This document shows positions 2,721 to 20,711 of a stretch of 20,711 nt of DNA, one piece after another (position 1 is the stretch's first letter; every line of letters begins with the position of its first letter). Source of the stretch: a virus; the UHGV virus genome UHGV-0163620, one strand, 5' to 3'. The translations under genes and the position numbers were made by a program. The notes below the pieces were generated by a model, which did no database searches, was not told the DNA's origin, and worked only from the letters and a program-made list of their open reading frames with translations.

Positions 2721-3797
2721 TTACTCAAATAACTTTTTCACTTCATCAACTGTCTGAAGATAACGTTCGCCCTCAATCTCAATACCTATTGCCTGACGTC
2801 CTAACTTCAGCGCAGCTTTAATAGTTGAGCCTGATCCCATAAAGAAATCGGCAACGATATCTCCGGGGCGTGAACTACTCTTTATAATATGTTCCATCAT
2901 CGCTGCAGGTTTTTCACATGGGTGCTTGCCAGGATAATATTGCACAGGAGGAAACTCCCATACATCGGTATAAGGTACATCAGCAGTAACATGAAATGGA
3001 CGGCGTAAATTTTCATACTGAGCCTTCAAATCATCATACTGCTTCTTTACTTCCTCATAATGCAATTTCAGATCGCTATAACGCTTTTCATGTTCTGAAT
3101 AATCAACATTAAAAGGATATGGACACGGGACACCGAGTGAATCTGCCTTCCTGCGAAATAATTCGCATAGTTTATTAAAATCAATTAATGATGGAAGCCG
3201 CCACTGCGAATAAGAAAACCAGTGTGAACACATCTGCTTTCCTGTCGCTGAATTAATGTCTGCGGCTGATATATCTAACTGACGGCGAGCCAGCGAAAAA
3301 GCATCAATTAGTGGAGAAAAAATATTTTTTCTTAAATCTGCACATTTTGAAGCATAACCTGACTGACCTTTAGCATAACCTGACGCGCCGTAATGCTCTG
3401 CAAATAATATTCTTTCAGTAGCAGGAAAATAAGCCCTTAAACTTTCTTTATGACAACCGCGCCACATACCACTGGGTTTAGCCCAAATGATATGGTTCAG
3501 AACATTGAAACGGTCGCGAGTTAATAATTCAATTTTTGACGCAAGGCGAGAGCCGGTAAACATATACAGGCTGCCATTAGGGGCCAATATCCGCCAAAAT
3601 TCTGCCAAAAATTCGTCAATCCACCCCAAAAAGTCAGCATCGCTATCCCACTGGTTATCCCATGCGTTAGCCTTTACGCCGAAGTATGGTGGGTCTGTTG
3701 CAATCAAATTGACCGAGTTATCAGGGATGGTTTTGATAAATTGCAGAGAATCTGCGCAAACGAGTTGTGCGCCATGAATATTAGTGGTTTTGAACAT
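2721..3797 (-). CDS. DNA methyltransferase, beta-class amino-methyltransferase (N6-adenine or N4-cytosine), orphan
   Basis: DPPY catalytic motif near N-terminus (LIATDPPYF) followed by C-terminal AdoMet motif FxGxG (DFFMGSGST); start set at second Met (3797) by family N-terminus pattern, alternative ATG at 3842. Confidence 0.8.
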   Translation of the reverse strand: MFKTTNIHGAQLVCADSLQFIKTIPDNSVNLIATDPPYFGVKANAWDNQWDSDADFLGWIDEFLAEFWRILAPNGSLYMFTGSRLASKIELLTRDRFNVLNHIIWAKPSGMWRGCHKESLRAYFPATERILFAEHYGASGYAKGQSGYASKCADLRKNIFSPLIDAFSLARRQLDISAADINSATGKQMCSHWFSYSQWRLPSLIDFNKLCELFRRKADSLGVPCPYPFNVDYSEHEKRYSDLKLHYEEVKKQYDDLKAQYENLRRPFHVTADVPYTDVWEFPPVQYYPGKHPCEKPAAMMEHIIKSSSRPGDIVADFFMGSGSTIKAALKLGRQAIGIEIEGERYLQTVDEVKKLFE

Positions 3798-4042: not shown

Positions 4043-4058
4043 TGCGACCGTGGTCGCA
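4043..4058. other. sopC-like 16-bp inverted repeat TGCGACCGTGGTCGCA, copy 2 (extends to a 24-bp palindrome 4039-4062)
   Basis: Exact reverse complement of copy 1; lies about 21 bp upstream of the candidate late promoter -35. Confidence 0.6.
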
Positions 4059-5871: not shown

Positions 5872-5885
5872 CGTGACCAGTCACG
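5872..5885. other. 14-bp palindrome CGTGACCAGTCACG (second dyad-site class), copy 1
   Basis: Identical 14-mer at 11927-11940 and its reverse complement at 16951-16964; abuts the Shine-Dalgarno of 5620..5862 and spans the stop of 5881..6207. Confidence 0.55.
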
Positions 5886-9230: not shown

Positions 9231-9531
9231 TTTCTTGTGCGACCACGGTCGCACCCTCTCTGATTTCCAAGTAACGCTTAATCCAAAGATTTTCTATATG
9301 CTTATTACCTGGCTGATTTGATAAATACCAATCGGCAATTACAGACTGCTTATTACTATCTGGTCGTGTCCTGTAACCACAAGTTGGACACCAGATAACA
9401 TATTCATTTCTTACCCCCGAATACCTTAATTCTGGCTTCGACGGTTTCCTGAACATAACTTGTTTACAAAGACAGAATGGCACTTCCTGCCCGATGGCGT
9501 TTGATGATTTCACTGCGCTTCTCCGCCGCAT
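9211..9531 (-). CDS. zinc-ribbon protein, possibly Lar-like restriction alleviation family (tentative)
   Basis: CxC ... CxxC pattern (VPFCLCK ... WCPTCGYRTRP ... ADWYLSN) loosely resembling Lar/RalR small proteins as recalled from memory. Confidence 0.4.
   Translation of the reverse strand: MRRRSAVKSSNAIGQEVPFCLCKQVMFRKPSKPELRYSGVRNEYVIWCPTCGYRTRPDSNKQSVIADWYLSNQPGNKHIENLWIKRYLEIREGATVVAQENENNAI
9238..9253. other. sopC-like 16-bp inverted repeat TGCGACCACGGTCGCA, copy 3
   Basis: Identical to copy 1; 8 bp upstream of the ATG at 9230 and inside the 3' end of ORF 9211..9531. Confidence 0.6.
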
Positions 9532-10174
9532 TTAATAATGCAGTTCGATTTAAGCTCAGACATCGCGACTTAATTAAAAGCCAGCGTTCTTTATAATCTT
9601 GTCTCCAGCTATCAATAGATATATTCAGTAGAAAACTCAGATGCCTGTCCTGTTCTCTCTCATCAACTGCCTCAGCACACGTAAGTTCTGATTTAACCTG
9701 TTGTGCCGCGTAATAAATCAATTTCCGCATGGCTTTTTTCGTGGAGGCCTTCATTTTTTTAAAGCCGCCCCCCGAATGAGCAACCAGAAAATCAAGCCAT
9801 AACCACTGACAAACAATCACATCATTGTTGTAATCAGGCTTGCATCCGTAGCAATAATAAAGCCAGGCTGATTCCTCGTTATTCAACTGACCAATAGCCC
9901 TGCGCCAGCTGGCGCTCTGAAAATCAATATCAGTGAGCAACATTGATGATTGTTTAAATGTTTTCCCCTGGTGGAATCTAACCGGCTCAGCAGGAACGGA
10001 CACTTCGTATGAGTTATCATCCCCCACACTGATTGACCGGACTGGTTTATTGTTAAACCGTCCTGATCTACCGAGACGCATCTGCTCAAGCTGGACCTCC
10101 AGAATGCCACGCTGGCGATAATGAACATCAGCCAATGCCGTAGAGACGCAGCTGCGTATATACTCAAGCTCCAC
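9464..10174 (-). CDS. hypothetical protein, 236 aa, in the position of a Q-like late regulator (function unproven)
   Basis: Long ORF immediately downstream of the cro-like gene; N15 immB is recalled as cB-cro-Q; no antiterminator motif recognised; GTG start overlaps the cro-like stop. Confidence 0.45.
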   Translation of the reverse strand: MELEYIRSCVSTALADVHYRQRGILEVQLEQMRLGRSGRFNNKPVRSISVGDDNSYEVSVPAEPVRFHQGKTFKQSSMLLTDIDFQSASWRRAIGQLNNEESAWLYYCYGCKPDYNNDVIVCQWLWLDFLVAHSGGGFKKMKASTKKAMRKLIYYAAQQVKSELTCAEAVDEREQDRHLSFLLNISIDSWRQDYKERWLLIKSRCLSLNRTALLNAAEKRSEIIKRHRAGSAILSL

Positions 10175-10385
10175 GCTTACGACTCTCCTTAATCGACTGC
10201 TTTACCCGCCGAGTTGTAAAGTCACTCTTCAGCTTATAAGCAGTACGAACTTCAATATCGCTTTGCCGCAATGAAGGAATCTCTCCAGCGGTTAACCATT
10301 GGTAAACAGCTCCGGGTGTTACACCTACCCCTGCCGCTGCTTTTTCTACACTGCCAAAATGGCGAATAAGTTCTTCTGGTTTCAT
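10164..10385 (-). CDS. cro: Cro-like HTH regulator (YdaS/Cro family)
   Basis: 73 aa from the ATG at 10385; HTH segment GVGVTPGAVYQWL; divergent from the repressor gene across a region with two dyad operators. Confidence 0.7.
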   Translation of the reverse strand: MKPEELIRHFGSVEKAAAGVGVTPGAVYQWLTAGEIPSLRQSDIEVRTAYKLKSDFTTRRVKQSIKESRKRGA

Positions 10386-10412
10386 GTTGTTATTATAAAC
10401 AATAAACAACAA

Positions 10413-10454
10413 TTAAAGCCAGCTATAATAAATAAATTTTATAGCCAGCTATAA
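10413..10454. promoter_or_regulatory. immunity-switch operators: two 16-bp dyad sites (TTAAAGCCAGCTATAA at 10413-10428; TTATAGCCAGCTATAA at 10439-10454)
   Basis: Two 7-2-7 inverted repeats with centres 26 bp apart in the AT-rich region between divergent cro-like and repressor genes. Confidence 0.55.
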
Positions 10455-10476
10455 GAAGATCATTTATGATTACAGT

Positions 10477-11073
10477 ATGAAAACACGAGGCGAACGACTG
10501 AAAGCACGCCGTTTAGAGATGAAGCTGACGTTGCGAGAAGTTGCTGAGGCTGTCGATATCTCTATAGCAGGCGTCCAAAACTTAGAACGTGGCGACGTAA
10601 TGCCGTCACTGGAGATAGGTATTGCCCTGGCTAAGTGCTTACGCAAGCCAGTGCATTGGGTGCTATATGGGACAGAATATGACCCTGATCGCATTCCTGT
10701 TATTGGCACAACTGAAAGTGGGCCGGATGAAGAGTGGAAGCCGGGACAGGTTCCAAATACTGAGCGATTCCTGCCATTCATCAGCCAGCGCAATACTGTG
10801 TATGCGTTAACTATCAGCAATCTTACGCAGGGAAACTATCAGCCAGGCGATTTTCTCCTGGTCGATTCTGCGCTGGAACTGGTCCCCGGCGAGGATGTTC
10901 TGGTTCGTGATACTGCAGGAAATATCACTATCCAGCGCCTGGCCCGTTTTGATGATGAAAATTACTATCTGGATGGAACAAACTCACAACGCGCCATCTT
11001 CAGGAAAAGCGATCTTGAATTTGTTCACCAAATAGTCGGAACGATCAAATCATTCATGGTTGAGGGTAGATGA
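10477..11073 (+). CDS. cB: prophage repressor, CI/CB-like (N-terminal XRE HTH, C-terminal S24-peptidase-like domain)
   Basis: N-terminal HTH MKLTLREVAEAVDISIAGVQNLERG; C-terminal beta-rich domain alignable by eye to lambda CI but without an obvious GxSM serine motif or catalytic lysine. Confidence 0.75.
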   Translation: MKTRGERLKARRLEMKLTLREVAEAVDISIAGVQNLERGDVMPSLEIGIALAKCLRKPVHWVLYGTEYDPDRIPVIGTTESGPDEEWKPGQVPNTERFLPFISQRNTVYALTISNLTQGNYQPGDFLLVDSALELVPGEDVLVRDTAGNITIQRLARFDDENYYLDGTNSQRAIFRKSDLEFVHQIVGTIKSFMVEGR

Positions 11074-11174
11074 CTTAATACGGGGTTTATTGTTTGCTGT
11101 AAATCTGGTTTAATGCAGGGCATATGTTCTGTGGGTTGACTCAGGTTACAGCAGCAGAAAAAAGACGAAAAAAA

Positions 11175-11203
11175 ACCCGAGTCGGCAAACTCGGGTCCTT
11201 TTC
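11175..11203. terminator. bidirectional intrinsic terminator between repressor gene and repA
   Basis: 8-bp stem ACCCGAGT/ACTCGGGT with 6-nt loop; plus strand followed by CCTTTTC, minus strand followed by a run of 8 U. Confidence 0.55.
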
Positions 11204-11318
11204 AGGAAGCAGCCACAACAACGCGACAGATTCCGTCAATTCAAGATGCGTTTATTGTGGCTGCTCCTGCGGATTTTTTCAACCCGAAAAAACATAATTC
11301 GCATGGAATGGCTAAAAA

Positions 11319-14300
11319 ATGACATTAAACGATTTCTATGCGGATCGCTTTGGCAGCGATCCGTTCTCGCTAATTGAAGCAGCACGGGATGAACTAACCG
11401 AGCTGGCACAGATGGCTGGTATCAACTGGCCTGCCTGTTCCGACAACATCCAACTCAACCCTCGCGGGGGGGTTGAGCGTTACTCTTCATACAATAAAAC
11501 ATCTCCAGAAGCTCTCGAAAAGAGCCTGAAAGGACGCGTAGAAATTTACTCCAGGCTGGAACACAGCAAAGGGATTGATTACCCGTTCATTAACTTCGTC
11601 CATAAAGGCAGCGATGCTGGCTCATGGAGCGGTTTCTCCTTCCTGTTTTCTGAATATCGCCGTGAGCAACAACGGAATAATGCGACCGTGGTCGCACAAC
11701 CGGAAGAAGAACGGGAAAGAATAGAACGTCAGGCCGAAGCACGTCGTCGCCGTGAAGAACAAAAACGAATTAATGACCTGAAAAACAACCAAATGGACCA
11801 TGAACGTTTGCTGGGATGGCTGGCATTCCACAGCGCGTGGGAACATGCTCCGGCTGAAGACGGCTCATGGCCATATGCGATTAAAAAAGGTATTCGTGAC
11901 GTTTTTAGTTCATGTGATGTGCGTCGCGTGACCAGTCACGACAGTGCGAAATGGAGCCGGGGGTCAACCACATATATGGCTATCCCTCTGGCTCACCTGG
12001 ACGGTCGTTATGATGGTCGTATTGTGGGTTGGCAGCGAATCGACAAACAAGGTGGGAAATACCAGACCAGCGCAGTAACCAGCGGCGATTTCGTCGGTGC
12101 CTGCTTTGTTATCGGTGAGCTGAAAGGGGCGCAAAACATCGCTGTTACAGAAGGTTTTGCTACTGGTGCATCCATCTGGCTTGCCACGAAAAAAGATAAA
12201 CGCTTTGACGCTGTGGTTGTCGCTGTATCCGCTAACAACATGGTTCATGTTGTGGAACAACTGGTAAACATGTACCCGGCGGCAAAAATCACCTGCGCAC
12301 TGGATAATGACCGGAAATCTGCCACAGAAGGAAAAGGGAATACCGGCCTGCGGACTGGCTATGAAATCTTATCGAAATTCAACGATGTCCGCTGCGTCTA
12401 CCCAACTTTTGAAGACGATCCGCAAATGGAGTGCAGTGACTTCAACGACCTGCACAAACTACGTGGACTTCGTGAAACAGCACGTCAACTATTTGCAACA
12501 GCAAACCGCCTGAAAACCGGCACTGATTTGCTATCTCTGACGCTCAACCGCCTGAAGACAATTAAGCGGGATAACCGTCGTACTTTTGCCAAAGAGCTGC
12601 TGAGAGCGGTGGATATTGGCATGCTAACCTGTCCGGTTCCTAACAGTCCGTCAGATTTATTTAACATGTTCTGCATCGTTCTGCGTGAAATGGGACTGGA
12701 AAATATCTATCGTGCTACGGTAAAAGACCACATTGCCCGTCGCCTGAATAAAAAGTGCCGTATTGCCCAGGCTCCGCGCTCTTTCAGCGAACGCATAACT
12801 GATCCCAATAAACGACCTCAACATATCACCTATAAGCGTTTTGAAACTTCGGTAATGACCGATGATGTCCTGAAGTACGTGCAATCACTACAGGGGATAG
12901 TCATCGTCCGTGCTGGTATGGGTTCCGGCAAATCTACTGGATTGTTACGACCGTTAATGCATAGCTCAGAACGTGGTATCTCTGTTGCTCACCGTGTCTC
13001 CCTTATTGGTGGCCTGTGGGAAATGATGACAGAAGGAAAAGGTGTAAAAGCCGATATCCTGCACTATCAGGATCCTGGCTATCAGGAAATGGCTCCATAC
13101 GCCAGTAAACTGACCATCTGCATAAACTCGATTGTTAAAAACTGCTGGCAACCGTTGATGCGCCAGCACGACTATTTTGGCTTTGACGAGGCCACACAAG
13201 GGCTACGTGCCGTTCTTTCCGGTCGGGCTATGGAAAACCCGGTGGCTGTATTCAATACGCTAATTGACGCGCTGGCCAGAACGGAACAACACCCAATCAT
13301 GGTGGATGCTGATGCGAACGATCTGCTGGTTGACCTGGCTGAACTGGCTATGAAACGCCGTGAAGAACTAGGTTTACCGGCATGGCTGCAGATCCACGTA
13401 ATTGAATTACCTGTTGATGTTCGCAACCGCGAAACAGGTGAGCCAATCCGGGTTTTTTATACAGAAAAAGATCGCATCATGACCGAGGTGGTGAAAGCTG
13501 TATCGGATGGCGAAAAAATTATGTTGGCCACCGACAGCTCCACCTTTGCAGAAGATGTGACCGCCACCCTGAGAATGCATTTCCCTGGCAAGAAATTTCT
13601 GTGCGTAAACCAGAAAAGCAAACAGGATGAAGAAGTCGATGCCTTTACCAGCCAGCCAAAAGTAATGGTGATGAAATACGATGGACTGATCTACAGCCCG
13701 TCGATTTCCTCCGGGGTGTCATTTGAGAAAAAACATTTTGACCGTCATTTCGGCATGTTCTGCGGTGAAGTTGTGCCCAGCGACGCAGTGCAAATGCTAC
13801 GCCGCGACCGTACAGCAAAAGAATTTATTATTGGCTTTGATAAAGCCCGTGCAAAACGCGAGACTGATCCGCAAAAAATAGAACGTGCATTCGCCCAGGC
13901 ATTACTTGCTACCGCAGGCATGAACGGTGAACTGACGGATGTCATTTTCGATGGCGACCGTATATCAATGGGGGTAGCCAATACCGACTTTACCAGGATG
14001 AAAATTAAAGCAGCCGCAATTGAAGCGTCTGCGCGTAACGACTACGCCAGCAACATGATCTGCATCATGCACAGCGACGGTTATAAGGTATCACCATTAG
14101 CTACCGATTATGCCGCGAACGATTTTGGTAAAGAGCTGCGCAAAGAAGCGCGGGATATTGTGTGGGAACAGACGCTGGATCTGCACCTCAATACAGAGAC
14201 ACCAGAAGAATCAGAGCGTGAAGAACTACTAAAAAAACGTGCGCTAACGCTTGAAGAACAGGCAAAACTGGTCCGCTGGGATATTGAGAACGAACTGAAA

Positions 14301-15302
14301 TTACCGGTTGAAGAAGGCACACTGAAATTCTATTTCGATGGCGCTCGAGACAAAATTCGCCGTTATGAAACGATGCTGCTTGATGAAGTCACAGCCCGTC
14401 GTTATGACCGTGAAGAAGCGGCTATCAATTTTACATACGCATATCGCCAGACCGGACAGTGGCAATATTTTGTGGTGACCGCGATGACACGCGAGCAGGC
14501 TGATGATGTATTCAAAGCGAAATTTCCGGGAATAATCGACTACAAGGTAAAAGCCACCCCAGCTGTTGAGGTCGGCATGCGCGGATTCTATGCGCTTAAA
14601 TCAGCAACTCTCCGGCAGTATTTTATCGACTGCGGTATCGACCCTGAAACTATGACTGGCGAAGCGACGCAGGAACGCCTTAAGTTCGCTCGAGATAATC
14701 TCATGACAGCAGAACGCCGTGACCTGTTGAATAACGTTCTGCGCATTGGTGGTTTTATGACACCAAAAGGGAAGCCTAAAGTGCCGGAAGCACTGTTTAA
14801 AAACATCTGCGACTCTCTCGGCCTAAAAACAGGAAAACGTCGCGGCAGAGATGGCGATAAGCGCCCGACATTGCGTTTTGTTGAGCCTGAGTCTGTAGCA
14901 TTTATGCTTGATATTCTTGCGCAACGTCAGGAGGACGGTATGACGTTGAAAGCTCGCAAGGCAGAAAAATCAACGACCGAAGTGGATCGCGATTTGTCAT
15001 TAAATATATATATGAATGGTGAAACGAGATCCACAAACACGGAGGAACAGGATCCCCCTCGTTCAGCTATATCACAGGCTTTGGCTGTATTGCCGGTGGC
15101 TGTTCCTGAGTCCTGGGCGATGAGTGCTCTGCCATCAGCCGAACTGGAATCTATCAGGGGGTGGTCAGTTGACAGCATCGCATACACGTTTGCAGCCCTT
15201 TATATGACTGAGTTTATGGATTTGCTGTCCGGTCATGAGATTAAGTTGCTGAAGGCTTTTATAGGCCCACGACATGCCAGCGATGAGTTTTGTGTAGTTT
15301 AG
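11319..15302 (+). CDS. repA: RepA-like multidomain replication protein (primase + helicase/origin-binding), 1327 aa
   Basis: Toprim-like segment (VTEGFATGAS ... ALDND); Walker A VRAGMGSGKST and Walker B FGFDEAT; size and architecture match N15 RepA as recalled. Confidence 0.85.
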   Translation: MTLNDFYADRFGSDPFSLIEAARDELTELAQMAGINWPACSDNIQLNPRGGVERYSSYNKTSPEALEKSLKGRVEIYSRLEHSKGIDYPFINFVHKGSDAGSWSGFSFLFSEYRREQQRNNATVVAQPEEERERIERQAEARRRREEQKRINDLKNNQMDHERLLGWLAFHSAWEHAPAEDGSWPYAIKKGIRDVFSSCDVRRVTSHDSAKWSRGSTTYMAIPLAHLDGRYDGRIVGWQRIDKQGGKYQTSAVTSGDFVGACFVIGELKGAQNIAVTEGFATGASIWLATKKDKRFDAVVVAVSANNMVHVVEQLVNMYPAAKITCALDNDRKSATEGKGNTGLRTGYEILSKFNDVRCVYPTFEDDPQMECSDFNDLHKLRGLRETARQLFATANRLKTGTDLLSLTLNRLKTIKRDNRRTFAKELLRAVDIGMLTCPVPNSPSDLFNMFCIVLREMGLENIYRATVKDHIARRLNKKCRIAQAPRSFSERITDPNKRPQHITYKRFETSVMTDDVLKYVQSLQGIVIVRAGMGSGKSTGLLRPLMHSSERGISVAHRVSLIGGLWEMMTEGKGVKADILHYQDPGYQEMAPYASKLTICINSIVKNCWQPLMRQHDYFGFDEATQGLRAVLSGRAMENPVAVFNTLIDALARTEQHPIMVDADANDLLVDLAELAMKRREELGLPAWLQIHVIELPVDVRNRETGEPIRVFYTEKDRIMTEVVKAVSDGEKIMLATDSSTFAEDVTATLRMHFPGKKFLCVNQKSKQDEEVDAFTSQPKVMVMKYDGLIYSPSISSGVSFEKKHFDRHFGMFCGEVVPSDAVQMLRRDRTAKEFIIGFDKARAKRETDPQKIERAFAQALLATAGMNGELTDVIFDGDRISMGVANTDFTRMKIKAAAIEASARNDYASNMICIMHSDGYKVSPLATDYAANDFGKELRKEARDIVWEQTLDLHLNTETPEESEREELLKKRALTLEEQAKLVRWDIENELKLPVEEGTLKFYFDGARDKIRRYETMLLDEVTARRYDREEAAINFTYAYRQTGQWQYFVVTAMTREQADDVFKAKFPGIIDYKVKATPAVEVGMRGFYALKSATLRQYFIDCGIDPETMTGEATQERLKFARDNLMTAERRDLLNNVLRIGGFMTPKGKPKVPEALFKNICDSLGLKTGKRRGRDGDKRPTLRFVEPESVAFMLDILAQRQEDGMTLKARKAEKSTTEVDRDLSLNIYMNGETRSTNTEEQDPPRSAISQALAVLPVAVPESWAMSALPSAELESIRGWSVDSIAYTFAALYMTEFMDLLSGHEIKLLKAFIGPRHASDEFCVV
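11681..11696. other. sopC-like 16-bp inverted repeat TGCGACCGTGGTCGCA, copy 4, inside repA coding sequence
   Basis: Exact 16-mer encoding residues A-T-V-V-A of RepA (codons 122-126). Confidence 0.6.
11927..11940. other. 14-bp palindrome CGTGACCAGTCACG, copy 2, inside repA coding sequence
   Basis: Exact copy of the 5872-5885 site; encodes R-V-T-S-H-D of RepA; 246 bp downstream of sopC-like copy 4. Confidence 0.55.
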
Positions 15303-15319: not shown

Positions 15320-15586
15320 ATGATGCAAGAGTGCCTCGTTTTGATTGAAGGGTATGATCCGTATGTTGTTAACGTCAGCAGAATGGATACTGGCTATAGC
15401 GATTACAAAACTGGTCGAGAACTGCCGTTCACCATCATCAGGATGAATGGCTTTGGCGATGATGATGCTGTTTATTGCTGTATTGCCAGCGATAAAAACA
15501 TGGAAGACCGGACAGATGAAGCCCGTATGCTATTGAGGAAATATAAGGTAAAGCCGTTATCAGAGAATAACGCTGAGAGGGGTTAA
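15320..15586 (+). CDS. hypothetical protein, about 89 aa (start ambiguous)
   Basis: ORF immediately after repA; ORF-track start at 15290 overlaps the repA end, so the tandem ATGs at 15320/15323 are preferred. Confidence 0.45.
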   Translation: MMQECLVLIEGYDPYVVNVSRMDTGYSDYKTGRELPFTIIRMNGFGDDDAVYCCIASDKNMEDRTDEARMLLRKYKVKPLSENNAERG

Positions 15587-15984: not shown

Positions 15985-16073
15985 ATAGTGATGACTGTTC
16001 AAGTTAAACCGTTCTCGGCATATTTTATTTAATGGAATAACATATTATTAATCAAATAGGTTAAGTTAATATT

Positions 16074-16886
16074 ATGCGTAACAAAAAAACAACAGCTTTA
16101 TTACTCTCTATCTTGTTATTATCTGGATGCACTTATCAATATGATAATAAGGCATCAACGGACGTTGAGTATAAATTCGAAAAAGAAAAAAGAGTACCTA
16201 TCAACTCTGTTGGTGATTTTAGCAGCAAAATACTCACAGGTAAGGAATTTAATAGAATTATTGCATCAAAGATAGATGATGGTTCATGGCGTGGATATGT
16301 CGTTCACTCATTAACATACGCGCCATACAACAACGTTTTAACATCTCAAGGTTTGTCTATCCCTAGAAGTATCACATACTCAGGAACATATCTTAACCGT
16401 GATTTTGCTGAGAATAGCGGTAGTGATAGCGTGATAACATCTCGAGATATGTCTGGATGGTATGGTTTTCATGTCGATTCCTCTGAAATAACAAAGCATG
16501 GAAGCTATGTTGGTGCTAATGCTTTTGGAATATCTGCTGATGTAGAAGTGTTAAATACTTTAGGTGCCGAAATTATCTTTGGTAGTACACAAATAAATGA
16601 AGGGAACCCTGAAACAATATGGGCAGATATTGATATAAAAGGACAAATGCCAAAAGATGTTAATGTAAAAGACCTTAGAATTGAATATTTAGCAAAGATA
16701 AATGGGTTAAGCAGCAATCATATTGATATAACATCACCTACTATTTTTAACCCGTCAGATATGAGCCATAAAACTCAGGTTTTTATGGGTGAGTTATTAG
16801 CCGCGCGCCTAATAAATATTAAAACGGGAGAAATTTATCCAGTACAGCTAGAGTGGGTGTTCCGTTCGCGTGAGGCTTTCTTATAA
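16074..16886 (+). CDS. lipoprotein, 270 aa, in a compositionally AT-rich insert
   Basis: Signal peptide with lipobox LLSGC; coding sequence visibly AT-rich relative to neighbours; no family recognised. Confidence 0.7.
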   Translation: MRNKKTTALLLSILLLSGCTYQYDNKASTDVEYKFEKEKRVPINSVGDFSSKILTGKEFNRIIASKIDDGSWRGYVVHSLTYAPYNNVLTSQGLSIPRSITYSGTYLNRDFAENSGSDSVITSRDMSGWYGFHVDSSEITKHGSYVGANAFGISADVEVLNTLGAEIIFGSTQINEGNPETIWADIDIKGQMPKDVNVKDLRIEYLAKINGLSSNHIDITSPTIFNPSDMSHKTQVFMGELLAARLINIKTGEIYPVQLEWVFRSREAFL

Positions 16887-16947
16887 CGGAACAATAACAT
16901 TGTTCATGTTCTGATCGTTTGTTCAAGCAAACTATAAAAACACCTGT

Positions 16948-16967
16948 CCCCGTGACTGGTCACGGGG
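16948..16967. other. 20-bp perfect palindrome CCCCGTGACTGGTCACGGGG containing copy 3 of the 14-bp dyad site (16951-16964)
   Basis: Reverse-complement orientation of the 5872 and 11927 sites; lies between the lipoprotein stop and the immA-like promoter, about 20 bp upstream of its -35. Confidence 0.55.
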
Positions 16968-16987
16968 TAAAATGTCTTTGCAAATTA

Positions 16988-17017
16988 TTGACGTGTGCGT
17001 CGTTTTGGAGGTAAAGT
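16988..17017 (+). promoter_or_regulatory. candidate promoter of the immA-like antirepressor operon
   Basis: TTGACG (16988-16993), 18-nt spacer, TAAAGT (17012-17017); judged by eye. Confidence 0.35.
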
Positions 17018-17078
17018 CACCTCGCTGCGGTAAATCCCGCAGTCGGGACTTCGCAATCCTGGCAAAACGAAGCGCACA

Positions 17079-17100
17079 ACACGCGCCAGCGTGTTTTTTT
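17079..17100 (+). terminator. intrinsic terminator/attenuator in the immA-like leader
   Basis: 6-bp stem ACACGC/GCGTGT with 4-nt loop followed by seven T (17094-17100); about 77 nt downstream of the candidate start site. Confidence 0.55.
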
Positions 17101-17131
17101 GTGTGTACAGACCTGCGCATATCCGAATTAT

Positions 17132-17211
17132 GGTGGCTCAGGTGGGGCTGACTTCGGTCGGGCCGGTTTCTTCGTTTACCGGTATTGCGAACCCCGCCTG
17201 GGCTACCACCA
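17132..17211 (+). ncRNA. tRNA-like structured RNA, candidate c4/CA-type antisense regulator (RNase P substrate-like)
   Basis: 5' GGUGGCU pairs with 3' GGCUACC (7 bp, two G-U) followed by ACCA; internal GAC-UUCG-GUC and CCGGU-N10-ACCGG stem-loops; two blocks complementary to 17221-17240 downstream. Confidence 0.4.
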
Positions 17212-17266
17212 ATAAAGAGATTCGCAACTCTGGTGGTAGCACGACCAATAAAACGGAGTGCATACC

Positions 17267-17431
17267 ATGTTCAAATTCAAATTTGCGGCAGTCGTTCGCA
17301 CAGACAAAAAGTCCCACATTCATCATCTTTCCACTATCGCGTCATCTGAACGGGAAGCTCGTCGCCAGTTCGCCAGCCGGTTTGTCCTGGTATTATCTGC
17401 CCGTATTCCGGTGCGCGAGGTGGCTGCATGA
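17267..17431 (+). CDS. small ORF, 54 aa (Icd-like position in an immI/immA-type operon), not in ORF track
   Basis: ATG at 17267 with GGAG 8 nt upstream; stop TGA overlaps the next ATG (ATGA); function unknown. Confidence 0.4.
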   Translation: MFKFKFAAVVRTDKKSHIHHLSTIASSEREARRQFASRFVLVLSARIPVREVAA

Positions 17432-17661
17432 ATCAGGTAAAAATGAACACTGTTGGCCTGCTGGAATCGTTGGATGAACGTCTGGCTCAGGTCTATGCGC
17501 TCGTATCATCAGCCCATCGGACAGTCTCCAGTTGTGAGGCGTCGATTTACCTCTCAGAGGCTGGAAAACTTCTGCAGATTGCGTGTGAGTTAACGCATGA
17601 AGCACAGGGATATTCTGCGTCTCTCTCGTCGCACTTGCTGCGCGATAAGGAGGCTGAATGA
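17428..17661 (+). CDS. hypothetical protein, 77 aa, antirepressor-operon gene
   Basis: Translationally coupled on both sides (ATGA overlaps at 17428 and 17658). Confidence 0.5.
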   Translation: MNQVKMNTVGLLESLDERLAQVYALVSSAHRTVSSCEASIYLSEAGKLLQIACELTHEAQGYSASLSSHLLRDKEAE

Positions 17662-18431
17662 GCGCGTTAGCAGTCTTTTCCTTTCAGGAAGAGCATCAGG
17701 TACGTGTAGTGATGATTAACGGCGATCCGTGGTTTGTGGCGAATGATATTTGCAATGCTTTAAGCATCCAGAATGTCACACAAGCTATCGCTAGATTAGA
17801 TGAAGATGAGCGATCTATGTTTAACATAGGCCGTCAAGGTCAAGCCAATATCATCAGCGAATCAGGTCTTTACACCCTCATTCTCCGCTGCCGTGACGCG
17901 GTGAAGCAAGGCACAACAGCTTGGCGGTTTCGCAAATGGGTAACGAACGAAGTCTTGCCCTCTATTCGCAAAAATGGAGAGTACGTTTACATCGAGCCTG
18001 AGCCAATGCGAGCAGCGGAGCCGTTGAACGGGAGGCAGAAAGCGTATCTGCGAGGGCTGATTAACGATATAGCACAAAGTTTTCGGTGCCGAAATGCCTG
18101 GATCAGTGGAATATGGTTGGCTTTGCGTCGGGCGTGTCGTAATCCATCCCCGAACCCCATAACGGTTGATGATTTGCCAGCAATTGCGGCAGAACTGCGC
18201 AGGATTTTGACGGCTGCTGAGTCGGCATTGAGGAACATGCGCACGTATGAACGGGAGTTGTTGCGTGATGTTGTTCGTGGGGGTAGGCGGAGTATGTCGT
18301 GTGGTGATTTGCCCATCATCGATATCAACTCTGATCTGGAAAAGGCGTTACCCGCACATTTTGAACTGGCAGTTCAAAAACTTGAGCAGCTATCCGCGCA
18401 GTTAAAGCCAGCAGAAATCACTAATAAATAG
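17658..18431 (+). CDS. antirepressor with Bro-N domain
   Basis: N-terminal Bro-N pattern: FSFQEEHQVRVVMINGDPWFVANDICNALSI ... GLYTLI ... FRKWVTNEVLPSIRKNG. Confidence 0.8.
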   Translation: MSALAVFSFQEEHQVRVVMINGDPWFVANDICNALSIQNVTQAIARLDEDERSMFNIGRQGQANIISESGLYTLILRCRDAVKQGTTAWRFRKWVTNEVLPSIRKNGEYVYIEPEPMRAAEPLNGRQKAYLRGLINDIAQSFRCRNAWISGIWLALRRACRNPSPNPITVDDLPAIAAELRRILTAAESALRNMRTYERELLRDVVRGGRRSMSCGDLPIIDINSDLEKALPAHFELAVQKLEQLSAQLKPAEITNK

Positions 18432-18569
18432 GGTTGGCCAGCCCGAATTTATGCCCTTCTTAGTGAGGGGAAGCTTCGCAGTCGGGGCGGTGATGTCTGT
18501 GGTTGCAGCCGCGTTTCCTCCGTTACTTCTGCCCTTTGCAGGGGGTGGGCGAGGCAGGCCACATAACAA

Positions 18570-18593
18570 GGCACCGATTAATTCGGTGCCTTT
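18570..18593. terminator. hairpin between convergent antirepressor and telN genes (possible bidirectional terminator)
   Basis: 7-bp stem GGCACCG/CGGTGCC with 7-nt loop followed by TTT on the plus strand; U-tract weak on both strands. Confidence 0.4.
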
Positions 18594-18603
18594 AACGTAT
18601 GCT

Positions 18604-20493
18604 TTAGCCGAAATATGTCAGCCATGCTAACTGCATTGCTGACATGGGGCTGTTTGCACTGCCTGACCACGCATAATTCTGGCCATTATAATGAAACTCG
18701 ACAACGTATGAGCCATCACCAATATTTCTCACTGGCTTAAATACCGGCTTAGATACAGGCGAAGAAGGTGCAGGCGGTTGCTGTTCTTCTACGCTCTCTT
18801 CCTCTTCCTCTATCTCAATTTCGTCGTCATCCAGATCGTCATCCTCTGATAATTCATCCGCCAGTTCAGGTATTGCTTCCAGTTCTTCTTCGTCAGGCAT
18901 AACGATTTCTGGAGTATCTATTTTCAGTTGCCATTGTCCGTTTTCGCCAACAAATTGCCCCAGAGCATCAGCAGCAAATTCCAGGTATCGACTAATCATT
19001 GTAGGGCTAAATTTGAATGCTCTTAGAGTGCTGTTCGTGATTTTTATAGAGGGGTCCTGCTCTACCAGCTGCTTAACTGTGTTATGCAGACGAACTCCGG
19101 CATCACCTCTGGCGAATCCTGGCATTTCTTCATCAAGCTGCTGCAATGCTTCCAGCCTGGTATTTTCGTTTCCAGTATTTGGCCTCCATGTCTTTGAGAA
19201 GTTGGCCAGCTTGAATTGCTTATAGTGTAATTGAGTGTTTTCATCGTCATGGCCTAAAATTTCCATAAAGAAAACATCCTCATCTACGTTTTTCCAACGA
19301 GGATCTACGCGGAAAAACATTTCATACGCAATACGGGCATAAATAGCACGACTATCTTTATAAACACGGCGGTCATCTTTGAAAAATGATTTAACCCACG
19401 GGTTAAAAGCCTTTGCTAATATGGCATTAATCCGTCCGTTTTCAGAGCGTGTGTCGTTATCTCCATAACCTTTAACGACATCATCAAAATCAGATGCTGC
19501 TGGGCATGAGCGAAGTACATTTATTAAATAAACAAATGTTTTTGCTTCGCATAATGTATATATTTTTCTGGTTATATCATCAGAAGTTCTTTTTTTTGCT
19601 TGGCCTAAAAAATCAACGGTATACTTACCAGAAACAGTAAATGTACCTTGATACATAATCTCAATCATTCGTCTTCCTGACAATGCAGCAAGTGCAAATG
19701 CCAAAGGAGCCATACCTGAACGAGTGTTTAGATTATTTAATGTAGCAGGGCTATTTATAATATCGTAAATAGCTTGCATATATTTAGGGTAATCAATGAC
19801 CACCACGTTACGTTTCTTATTGTGCAGAACGTCTGCCCATCGTTGCTGGATAGATGCGCGTTCGGCAGGGCTTAGTTGAAGATGATAGAGAATCTCATGG
19901 TTAACTTTTAGCTGATTCAACTCCTCAAGTAAGGCAGATCCTTGCTGTAGTAATTTATATAAATAATCGCGCTTATCTTTCCAGTTATCGCTAGTTAAAT
20001 CAGAAATGGCGAATTGCCACTCTTTATATTTATTTGATAATTTTAATAACTTATTATGACTTTTGTTATCGCCAATTCTGATATTAGATAAATCTTCTGA
20101 TAGAGGGAGAATTAATTTTAATTTTGCCTGTAAAGCTGACATTCTCTGGCGAATATCGGCAGCAGGTAGAGAAAGCCATGACAATAGCTCCTCATTATAT
20201 AAAGGATACTTTTCAGATAGGCGATGTATATTTTTTTCAAAGCTATGATGAAGTTTATCATCAAACCGTTTTCTGGCCCTGCTCATATAGGCATTGAATG
20301 TGTTGGCTGTAATTCTTTTTTCTAATCCTTTCCCCCTAAACTTTCGCTTGTCATTAAATAATGCATTTTTAAATTTTAATGCAACAGCCTTTATTTTTTT
20401 TGTTTTCTCCCCTTGAGGACGGTCAGAGTTATCTATTGACTCAACATCGCTAACAAGTGAGTTTATTAATTCACCGATTTTTACTTTGCTCAT
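18604..20493 (-). CDS. telN: protelomerase (telomere resolvase), TelN-like
   Basis: 629 aa; N-terminus MSKVKIGELIN and long stretches match phage N15 TelN as recalled; acidic C-terminal region; AGGAGAGG Shine-Dalgarno; adjacent palindromic target site. Confidence 0.95.
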   Translation of the reverse strand: MSKVKIGELINSLVSDVESIDNSDRPQGEKTKKIKAVALKFKNALFNDKRKFRGKGLEKRITANTFNAYMSRARKRFDDKLHHSFEKNIHRLSEKYPLYNEELLSWLSLPAADIRQRMSALQAKLKLILPLSEDLSNIRIGDNKSHNKLLKLSNKYKEWQFAISDLTSDNWKDKRDYLYKLLQQGSALLEELNQLKVNHEILYHLQLSPAERASIQQRWADVLHNKKRNVVVIDYPKYMQAIYDIINSPATLNNLNTRSGMAPLAFALAALSGRRMIEIMYQGTFTVSGKYTVDFLGQAKKRTSDDITRKIYTLCEAKTFVYLINVLRSCPAASDFDDVVKGYGDNDTRSENGRINAILAKAFNPWVKSFFKDDRRVYKDSRAIYARIAYEMFFRVDPRWKNVDEDVFFMEILGHDDENTQLHYKQFKLANFSKTWRPNTGNENTRLEALQQLDEEMPGFARGDAGVRLHNTVKQLVEQDPSIKITNSTLRAFKFSPTMISRYLEFAADALGQFVGENGQWQLKIDTPEIVMPDEEELEAIPELADELSEDDDLDDDEIEIEEEEESVEEQQPPAPSSPVSKPVFKPVRNIGDGSYVVEFHYNGQNYAWSGSANSPMSAMQLAWLTYFG

Positions 20494-20657
20494 CTTTCCT
20501 CTCCTGATTATCCGCTCGGATTATCGTAACACAATTTGAGAATAAGATAACTAATAACGCGTTAACTTAGGCACAAACTAACAGAACACAATAACGGGCA
20601 ATAAATAAAAACACAATATCAGAACGCTAAAATTTGTTCCTTGACTTTGTTCTGAAA

Positions 20658-20711
20658 ATTAGCACATAATTTCCCATTATACGCGCGTATAATGGGAAAT
20701 TATGTGCTAAT
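20658..20711. other. telomere resolution site (telRL-like), perfect palindrome of at least 54 bp truncated by the window end
   Basis: All 27 base pairs around the centre (between 20684 and 20685, core TATACGCGCGTATA) verified complementary; located 165 bp upstream of telN. Confidence 0.85.

Follow-up and report, generated by a model that had tools for sequence, protein, structure and literature searches.

An N15-type immB switch predicted in a phage genome: two intergenic dyads as putative OR2 and OR3 among three OR and two OL operators

The closest described relatives of the locus considered here are the immunity regions of phages N15, phiKO2 and PY54, for which operators, binding proteins and regulatory logic have largely been worked out. 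For N15, GenBank record U45242 annotates five CB protein_bind sites in the immB region, namely OR1, OR2, OR3, OL2 and OL1, with OL2 mislabelled OR2 in the record itself. The experimentally best-described case is the immB region of phiKO2 (Hammerl et al. 2016, PMC4997575). There, all five sites, OR1, OR2, OR3, OL1 and OL2, are shifted by the prophage repressor CB, with the strongest shift at OR1; CB binds the N15 operators too, and phiKO2 Cro shifts OR3 only in electrophoretic mobility shift assays (EMSA) (PMC4997575). In phiKO2, CB silences three strong cro promoters that overlap the OR sites; Cro, acting at OR3, silences two cB promoters, which likewise overlap operators; one promoter, P2, "borders on OR3"; and CB at OL reduces repA transcription and lowers plasmid copy number (PMC4997575). 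For N15, footprints cited in the same paper place CB on OR3, and N15 Cro binds OR3 with a KD of 90 nM and leaves OR2 and OR1 unbound up to about 1 uM (PMC6649833). In the crystal structure 6ON0 (Hall et al. 2019), N15 Cro is bound to a symmetric form of OR3, and CB is reported to be devoid of RecA-cleavage and catalytic residues (PMC4997575, PMC6649833). Where the operators lie, which proteins bind them and how the switch operates are already known from N15 (U45242), from phiKO2 and PY54 (Hammerl 2015, 2016) and from the N15 Cro structure (Hall et al. 2019).

The new analysis concerns a single stretch of viral DNA of 20,711 nucleotides (UHGV-0163620), referred to as the window, which, judged from its sequence, belongs to an N15-like telomere phage with an N15-type immB switch. 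The region 10100-11400 matches Escherichia phage YDC107_1 (genus Ravinvirus) at 100% identity and the immB regions of N15 and phiKO2 at about 78%, and a distant BLAST search recovers 214 plasmid records that contain it, of which 29 reach an identity of at least 95%. Open reading frames and Pfam families agree on a gene order, Q-cro / cB-repA, that is collinear with both N15 and phiKO2. On the minus strand, the cro gene for the lytic repressor (10164-10385, ATG at 10385, 73 aa; Pfam P22_Cro, 1.7e-22) is followed downstream in the lytic operon by the Q antiterminator gene (9464-10174; Phage_antiter_Q, 4e-84), in the same order as cro-Q of N15. On the plus strand, the prophage repressor gene cB (10477-11073, 198 aa) precedes repA (11319-15302, 1327 aa), a replication gene under PL/OL control with Toprim_3 and Herpes_ori_bp matches that is homologous to N15 gene 37. 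A 91-bp gap (10386-10476) separates the divergent cro and cB genes.

Both regulators closely resemble their described counterparts. Cro aligns to N15 Cro from residue 1 with 53 of 61 aligned residues identical (87%), matches the N15 Cro structures PDB 2HIN and 6ON0 at 2e-32, and carries the invariant recognition helix TPGAVYQW, the same as in N15 Cro, whose DNA complex is 6ON0. CB is 78% identical to N15 CB and shows an N-terminal HTH_3 domain (3e-11) and a C-terminal Peptidase_S24-like part that stays below the Pfam threshold (21.3 bits, cut-off 23.3). Towards the end of the window, a 629-aa open reading frame on the minus strand (18604-20493) lies at the position of the protelomerase gene in the closest relative. 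Beyond about 16 kb (about 16000-20711), the window and YDC107_1 are not collinear: for example, a 270-aa open reading frame (16074-16886) is missing from YDC107_1, and the protelomerase gene lies at shifted coordinates. Hence, the window derives from a mosaic relative and not from exactly phage YDC107_1.

The original prediction read the gap as an immunity switch with two operators, that is, two 16-bp sites of 7-2-7 symmetry between divergent cro-like and CB-like genes, with centres 26 bp apart. These sites are placed exactly, at 10413-10428 (TTAAAGCCAGCTATAA, centre 10420.5) and 10439-10454 (TTATAGCCAGCTATAA, centre 10446.5), and the 26-bp distance is confirmed. The first aligns to N15 OR2 (TTAAAGCTAGGTATAA), matching it at 14 of 16 positions, and the second equals OR3 of N15 at every base and is identical to OR3 of phiKO2. 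OR3 is a perfect 7-2-7 dyad (TTATAGC-CA-GCTATAA), and OR2 has one arm mismatch. The sites do align to repressor operators of an immB switch, but the count of two fell short, since the OR array comprises three sites. The one that was missed, OR1 (10390-10405, TTATTATAAACAATAA), is a 6-of-7 dyad that aligns to the annotated N15 OR1 (TTATTATAATCAATAA) with 15 of 16 positions identical, and its centre lies 23 bp from that of OR2, a spacing that, like the 26 bp between OR2 and OR3, is as in N15. The earlier reading was therefore right in kind and incomplete: there are three OR and two OL operators, and CB and Cro would use them asymmetrically, as in N15 and phiKO2, where all five are bound by CB and essentially OR3 alone by Cro.

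Further operator copies, which the original prediction had suggested looking for upstream of repA, are located there. OL2 (11087-11102, TTATTGTTTGCTGTAA) aligns to the N15 CB site TTATTGCTGACTATAA and scores 13.8 with the weight matrix described below, and OL1 (11110-11125, TTAATGCAGGGCATAT) aligns to N15 OL1 (TTAATCCGATCTATAC), is a weak match with a matrix score of only 7.0 and was assigned by position alone. The two lie 23 bp apart, as in N15, and are the most diverged of the operators relative to that phage (12/16 and 9/16 positions identical, respectively). Given its poor conservation, OL1 may be non-functional in this phage. All five sites in the window, OR1 to OR3 and OL1 to OL2, retain the T-A-N10-T-A motif, which Hammerl et al. 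describe as a common feature of these operators (PMC4997575). Between OL and repA, a terminator scan identifies a bidirectional terminator in the repA leader (11168-11203) that aligns to the annotated terminators of N15 and phiKO2. Adjoining this conserved terminator is a promoter-like sequence on the minus strand (TTGAAA-17-CACAAT, 11254-11282) that matches N15 Pinc hexamer for hexamer; in the N15 annotation, Pinc is the promoter for an antisense RNA to the repA leader. With this Pinc-like promoter, repA would be subject to a further level of control in addition to OL.

The statistical case is strongest for OR2 and OR3. Across the 20.7 kb, matches to the dyad pattern with no more than one mismatch are OR2 and OR3 only, both within the 91-bp intergenic region. 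A weight matrix was built from other phages exclusively, using the GenBank-annotated sites of N15 and their positional homologues in phiKO2, and was compared with a null of 200 first-order Markov simulated sequences, the highest of which scored 17.5. OR3 (21.4 bits) and OR2 (19.7 bits) rank first and second in the window and exceed every null sequence. OL2 and OR1 rank fourth and fifth, and each alone falls within the chance range for 20 kb, so their assignment is made through positional homology. The third-best match, GTATTGCCAGCGATAA at 15480-15495, falls within a gp36-like open reading frame downstream of repA; scoring 15.3 bits, close to the 95th percentile of the null maximum, it was considered as a CB operator and set aside as a probable chance match. 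Counting the pattern TTATAGCNNGCTATAA with up to three mismatches yields six matches against 1.05 expected, which as a count alone is weak, with one of 100 shuffles reaching six; four of the six carry three mismatches, and among those only OL2 is positionally meaningful.

Conservation adds a second line of evidence. In 12 immB regions collected by BLAST from E. coli, E. albertii, Enterobacter, Citrobacter and several Klebsiella species (Kpn74, in which the region is rearranged, was left out of the alignments), OR3 is invariant at 16 of 16 positions, with variable spacers around it. The arms of OR1 (TTATTATA...ATAA) and of OR2 are likewise conserved in these 12 relatives, whereas the OR1 centre and the inter-operator spacers vary. 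A scan of IMG/VR (48 loci) was anchored on exact OR3, which makes it uninformative on OR3 conservation, and was used for variants of OR1 and OR2. Together with the other relatives, these loci give 63 matches and 27 distinct OR haplotypes, and OR1 fits TTATTATANNCNATAA in all 27. OR2 occurs in five variants, with that of the window accounting for 19 of the 63 matches.

The same data bear on whether the dyads could simply reflect the overlap of AT-rich promoter hexamers, or a tandem duplication of 26 bp, without themselves being bound by any protein. No site is free of an overlapping TATAAT-like hexamer, and positions 10401-10426 and 10427-10452 do form a 26-nt direct repeat with 81% identity. 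Against such an origin, the GC-rich core GCCAGC, which is no promoter element, is invariant in the 12 relatives amid variable spacers, and homologous oligonucleotides of 16-18 bp are by themselves bound by CB and Cro in EMSA (PMC4997575, PMC6649833). Published binding to the identical OR3 sequence contradicts this explanation directly, and its probability is negligible.

The promoters are arranged around these operators in a manner that suggests how the switch would work. A candidate cB promoter on the plus strand (TAGCCA-17-TATGAT, 10442-10470), found by the promoter scan, has its -35 hexamer inside OR3 and its -10 hexamer ending six bases before the cB ATG, and its elements are also annotated in N15 (U45242). 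On the opposite strand, a perfect TATAAT within OR1 (10397-10392) provides the cro -10 hexamer, again six bases before the cro ATG, and another TATAAT, at 10424-10429 on the plus strand, reaches into OR2 at its right end. In the consensus scan, one N15-annotated promoter exceeded the threshold, and the others were placed by their hexamers and by alignment, which makes their positions approximate.

Mapped onto these elements, the published findings lead to a model in which CB dimers would occupy OR1, OR2 and OR3 in the prophage and thereby cover the hexamers (-10 and -35) of the promoters that drive cro-Q leftward, keeping cro and Q off. CB on OL2 and OL1 (11087-11125), which overlap the repA promoter, would at the same time hold plasmid copy number down. 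Once CB is inactivated, Cro would be made and bind OR3 as a dimer; from there it would overlap the -35 hexamer of the cB promoter and shut off cB, resulting in lytic commitment. It is thus very probable that the two dyads represent OR2 and OR3 of a three-operator OR array, with CB holding OR1 to OR3 and OL in the lysogen and Cro blocking cB via OR3 after CB inactivation. Sequences, positions, conservation and protein homologies were computed here, and the assignment of proteins to sites and the promoter activities come from the experiments on N15, phiKO2 and PY54. From close homology, we infer that the binding and promoter behaviour of these phages holds for this phage too, and strong homology likewise predicts that the switch is functional.

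A more serious alternative is that the logic has been altered in the clade from E. coli, Shigella and E. albertii to which the window belongs. In this scenario, Cro would bind OR2 as well as OR3 and limit its own transcription, closer to the situation in lambda, and the specificity of CB may be shifted to give an immunity type unlike that of N15. Several features point in this direction. OR2 and OR3 of the window agree at 15 of 16 positions, with identical right half-sites and a sole difference at base pair 4 of the left half-site, compared with three differing positions in N15 and two in phiKO2, and the 26-bp units that contain the two sites form the direct repeat of 81% identity. Moreover, immediately ahead of the predicted recognition helix and at its start, CB of this clade reads D-I-S-I-A and that of every other lineage compared reads G-I-S-L-P; the OL sites have diverged as well. 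As the I-A for L-P replacement falls at the start of the predicted helix, CB affinities could differ.

The evidence on the other side weighs more heavily. The base pair 4 change is an A-T/T-A swap at a directly contacted position, which the structure paper deems disruptive, and Cro binding is very specific in this family, to the extent that one peripheral base change abolishes it (PMC4488713). No change is seen in OR3 or in the arms of OR1, and phiKO2 CB is permissive enough to accept N15 operators (PMC4997575). Altered logic of this kind across the clade is hence very unlikely. The broader proposition that homogenisation of OR2 toward OR3 and the CB helix changes make the switch of the Escherichia/Shigella lineage unlike those of N15 and phiKO2, either by Cro autoregulation via OR2 or by a separate immunity specificity, is judged unlikely. 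A separate specificity, if true, would allow co-residence with, or superinfection by, N15-type phages. The lineage, which is represented by no fewer than 29 plasmid records with an identity of 95% or above, offers a natural OR2 variant for probing the specificity of Cro for OR3.

The starts of cro and cB used here depart from some existing annotations. For cro, the open reading frame list and the YDC107_1 and PhiR46_1 records use a TTG at 10412 (82 aa), which would put OR1 in coding sequence; the ATG at 10385 (73 aa) is favoured by RefSeq and by the alignment to N15 Cro. For cB, the annotated start in N15 and phiKO2 (202 aa) is an ATG inside the TATGAT hexamer (window 10465-10479). In the window, the spacer is 1 bp shorter in this lineage, and the homologous ATG is out of frame as a result (ATG ATT ACA GTA TGA). 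CB must therefore start at 10477 (MKTRGE...), giving 198 instead of 202 aa, which suggests that the shorter cB start may be the real one across the whole N15-like family.

No Shine-Dalgarno sequence is evident upstream of cro or cB. In PY54, cI and cro mRNAs are leaderless, as determined by RACE (PMC4488713). Since the -10 hexamer ends six bases before each ATG, a Shine-Dalgarno sequence is not apparent upstream of either gene and PY54 sets this precedent, cro and cB are probably translated from leaderless mRNAs in this phage. The practical consequence of the analysis lies in annotation, as two fixes become possible: the cro TTG start that runs through OR1 in several public records of the lineage, and the N15-type cB ATG that is out of frame here. 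Beyond correct annotation, the findings are of little importance, given that public records already contain the sequence and that the mechanism has been described.

The window contains other dyads that merit separate description. Perfect 7-2-7 dyads number ten in total against 1.6 expected, and six of these are explained, namely four sopC-like sites, the centre of telO and OR3. The four perfect sopC-like dyads, TGCGACC-(AC/GT)-GGTCGCA, lie at 1033-1048, 4043-4058, 9238-9253 and 11681-11696 (0.05 expected), and the protein that binds such sites is SopB. A palindrome around TATACGCGCGTATA at 20677-20692, which we take to be the telomere-resolution site (telRL) and to match N15 telO, sits in a longer inverted repeat (about 20660-20711); together with the probable protelomerase gene, it fits a replicon that is a linear plasmid prophage. 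Its centre, TTATACGCGCGTATAA, has the outer TTATA/TATAA of OR3 and satisfies T-A-N10-T-A; as a CB site it was rejected, with a matrix score of 11.65 that is below the mean null maximum, and its likeness to OR3 is probably coincidence. A third dyad family, CGTGAC-NN-GTCACG, is present in three exact copies (5872-5885, 11927-11940 and 16951-16964) against 0.04 expected and is unlike either the operators or the sopC-like sites. The copy located some 608 nt into repA is shared with N15 (3223-3236), and the motif is found in 45 of 62 loci.

That the OR dyads might be SopB-type centromere-like sites of the partition system, sharing as they do the 16-bp 7-2-7 geometry of the four TGCGACC-NN-GGTCGCA sites, is scarcely credible, because their arm sequences are unrelated, the sopC-like sites are scattered over the window (1033, 4043, 9238, 11681), with the last of them lying as deep in repA (362 nt) as the annotated "putative plasmid partitioning site" of phiKO2 (about 364 nt into its repA), and the OR sites align to annotated CB operators. 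A window-wide search for TGCGACC-NN-GGTCGCA with up to two mismatches returned the four sopC-like sites only and did not match the operators.

Set beside the known systems, the locus is most like N15 immB (U45242, AF064539). Gene order and orientation are the same, the five 16-bp operators occupy homologous positions with the 23/26/23-bp spacing, and both the terminator in the repA leader and the Pinc-like promoter have been retained. The differences comprise a nucleotide divergence of about 22%, an OR2 that is closer to OR3, diverged OL2 and OL1 sites, and a CB of 198 instead of 202 aa with I-A in place of L-P at the start of the recognition helix. The immB region of phiKO2 has the same architecture and an identical OR3; it differs in the central bases of OR1 (TTATTATATTCGATAA), at one position of OR2 (GGTATAA against GCTATAA) and in its host, Klebsiella, which is another genus.

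In turn, the OR/OL system of lambda shares the divergent repressor and cro genes, the three OR operators over divergent promoters, the presence of OL and the location of Q downstream of cro. In contrast to the 17-bp sites of lambda, N15-type sites are 16 bp long and have their axis of symmetry between base pairs; in N15 and phiKO2, Cro binding is confined to OR3, and the literature describes no lambda-type sharing of all OR sites by Cro there; and OL controls a plasmid replication gene. Finally, the original prediction held that the layout of the operators mirrors that of the sopC-like sites with different arms. For the sopC sites of the F plasmid and their N15 counterparts, the 16-bp 7-2-7 inverted-repeat geometry is indeed common and the arms do differ, but the likeness goes no further: TGCGACC stands against TTATAGC in the arms, on which ground a relationship between the two was rejected, the sopC-like sites are dispersed and the operators clustered, and the binding protein is another one. 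The shared geometry is the usual footprint of a helix-turn-helix dimer and not a relationship, and nothing suggests a common binder or origin.
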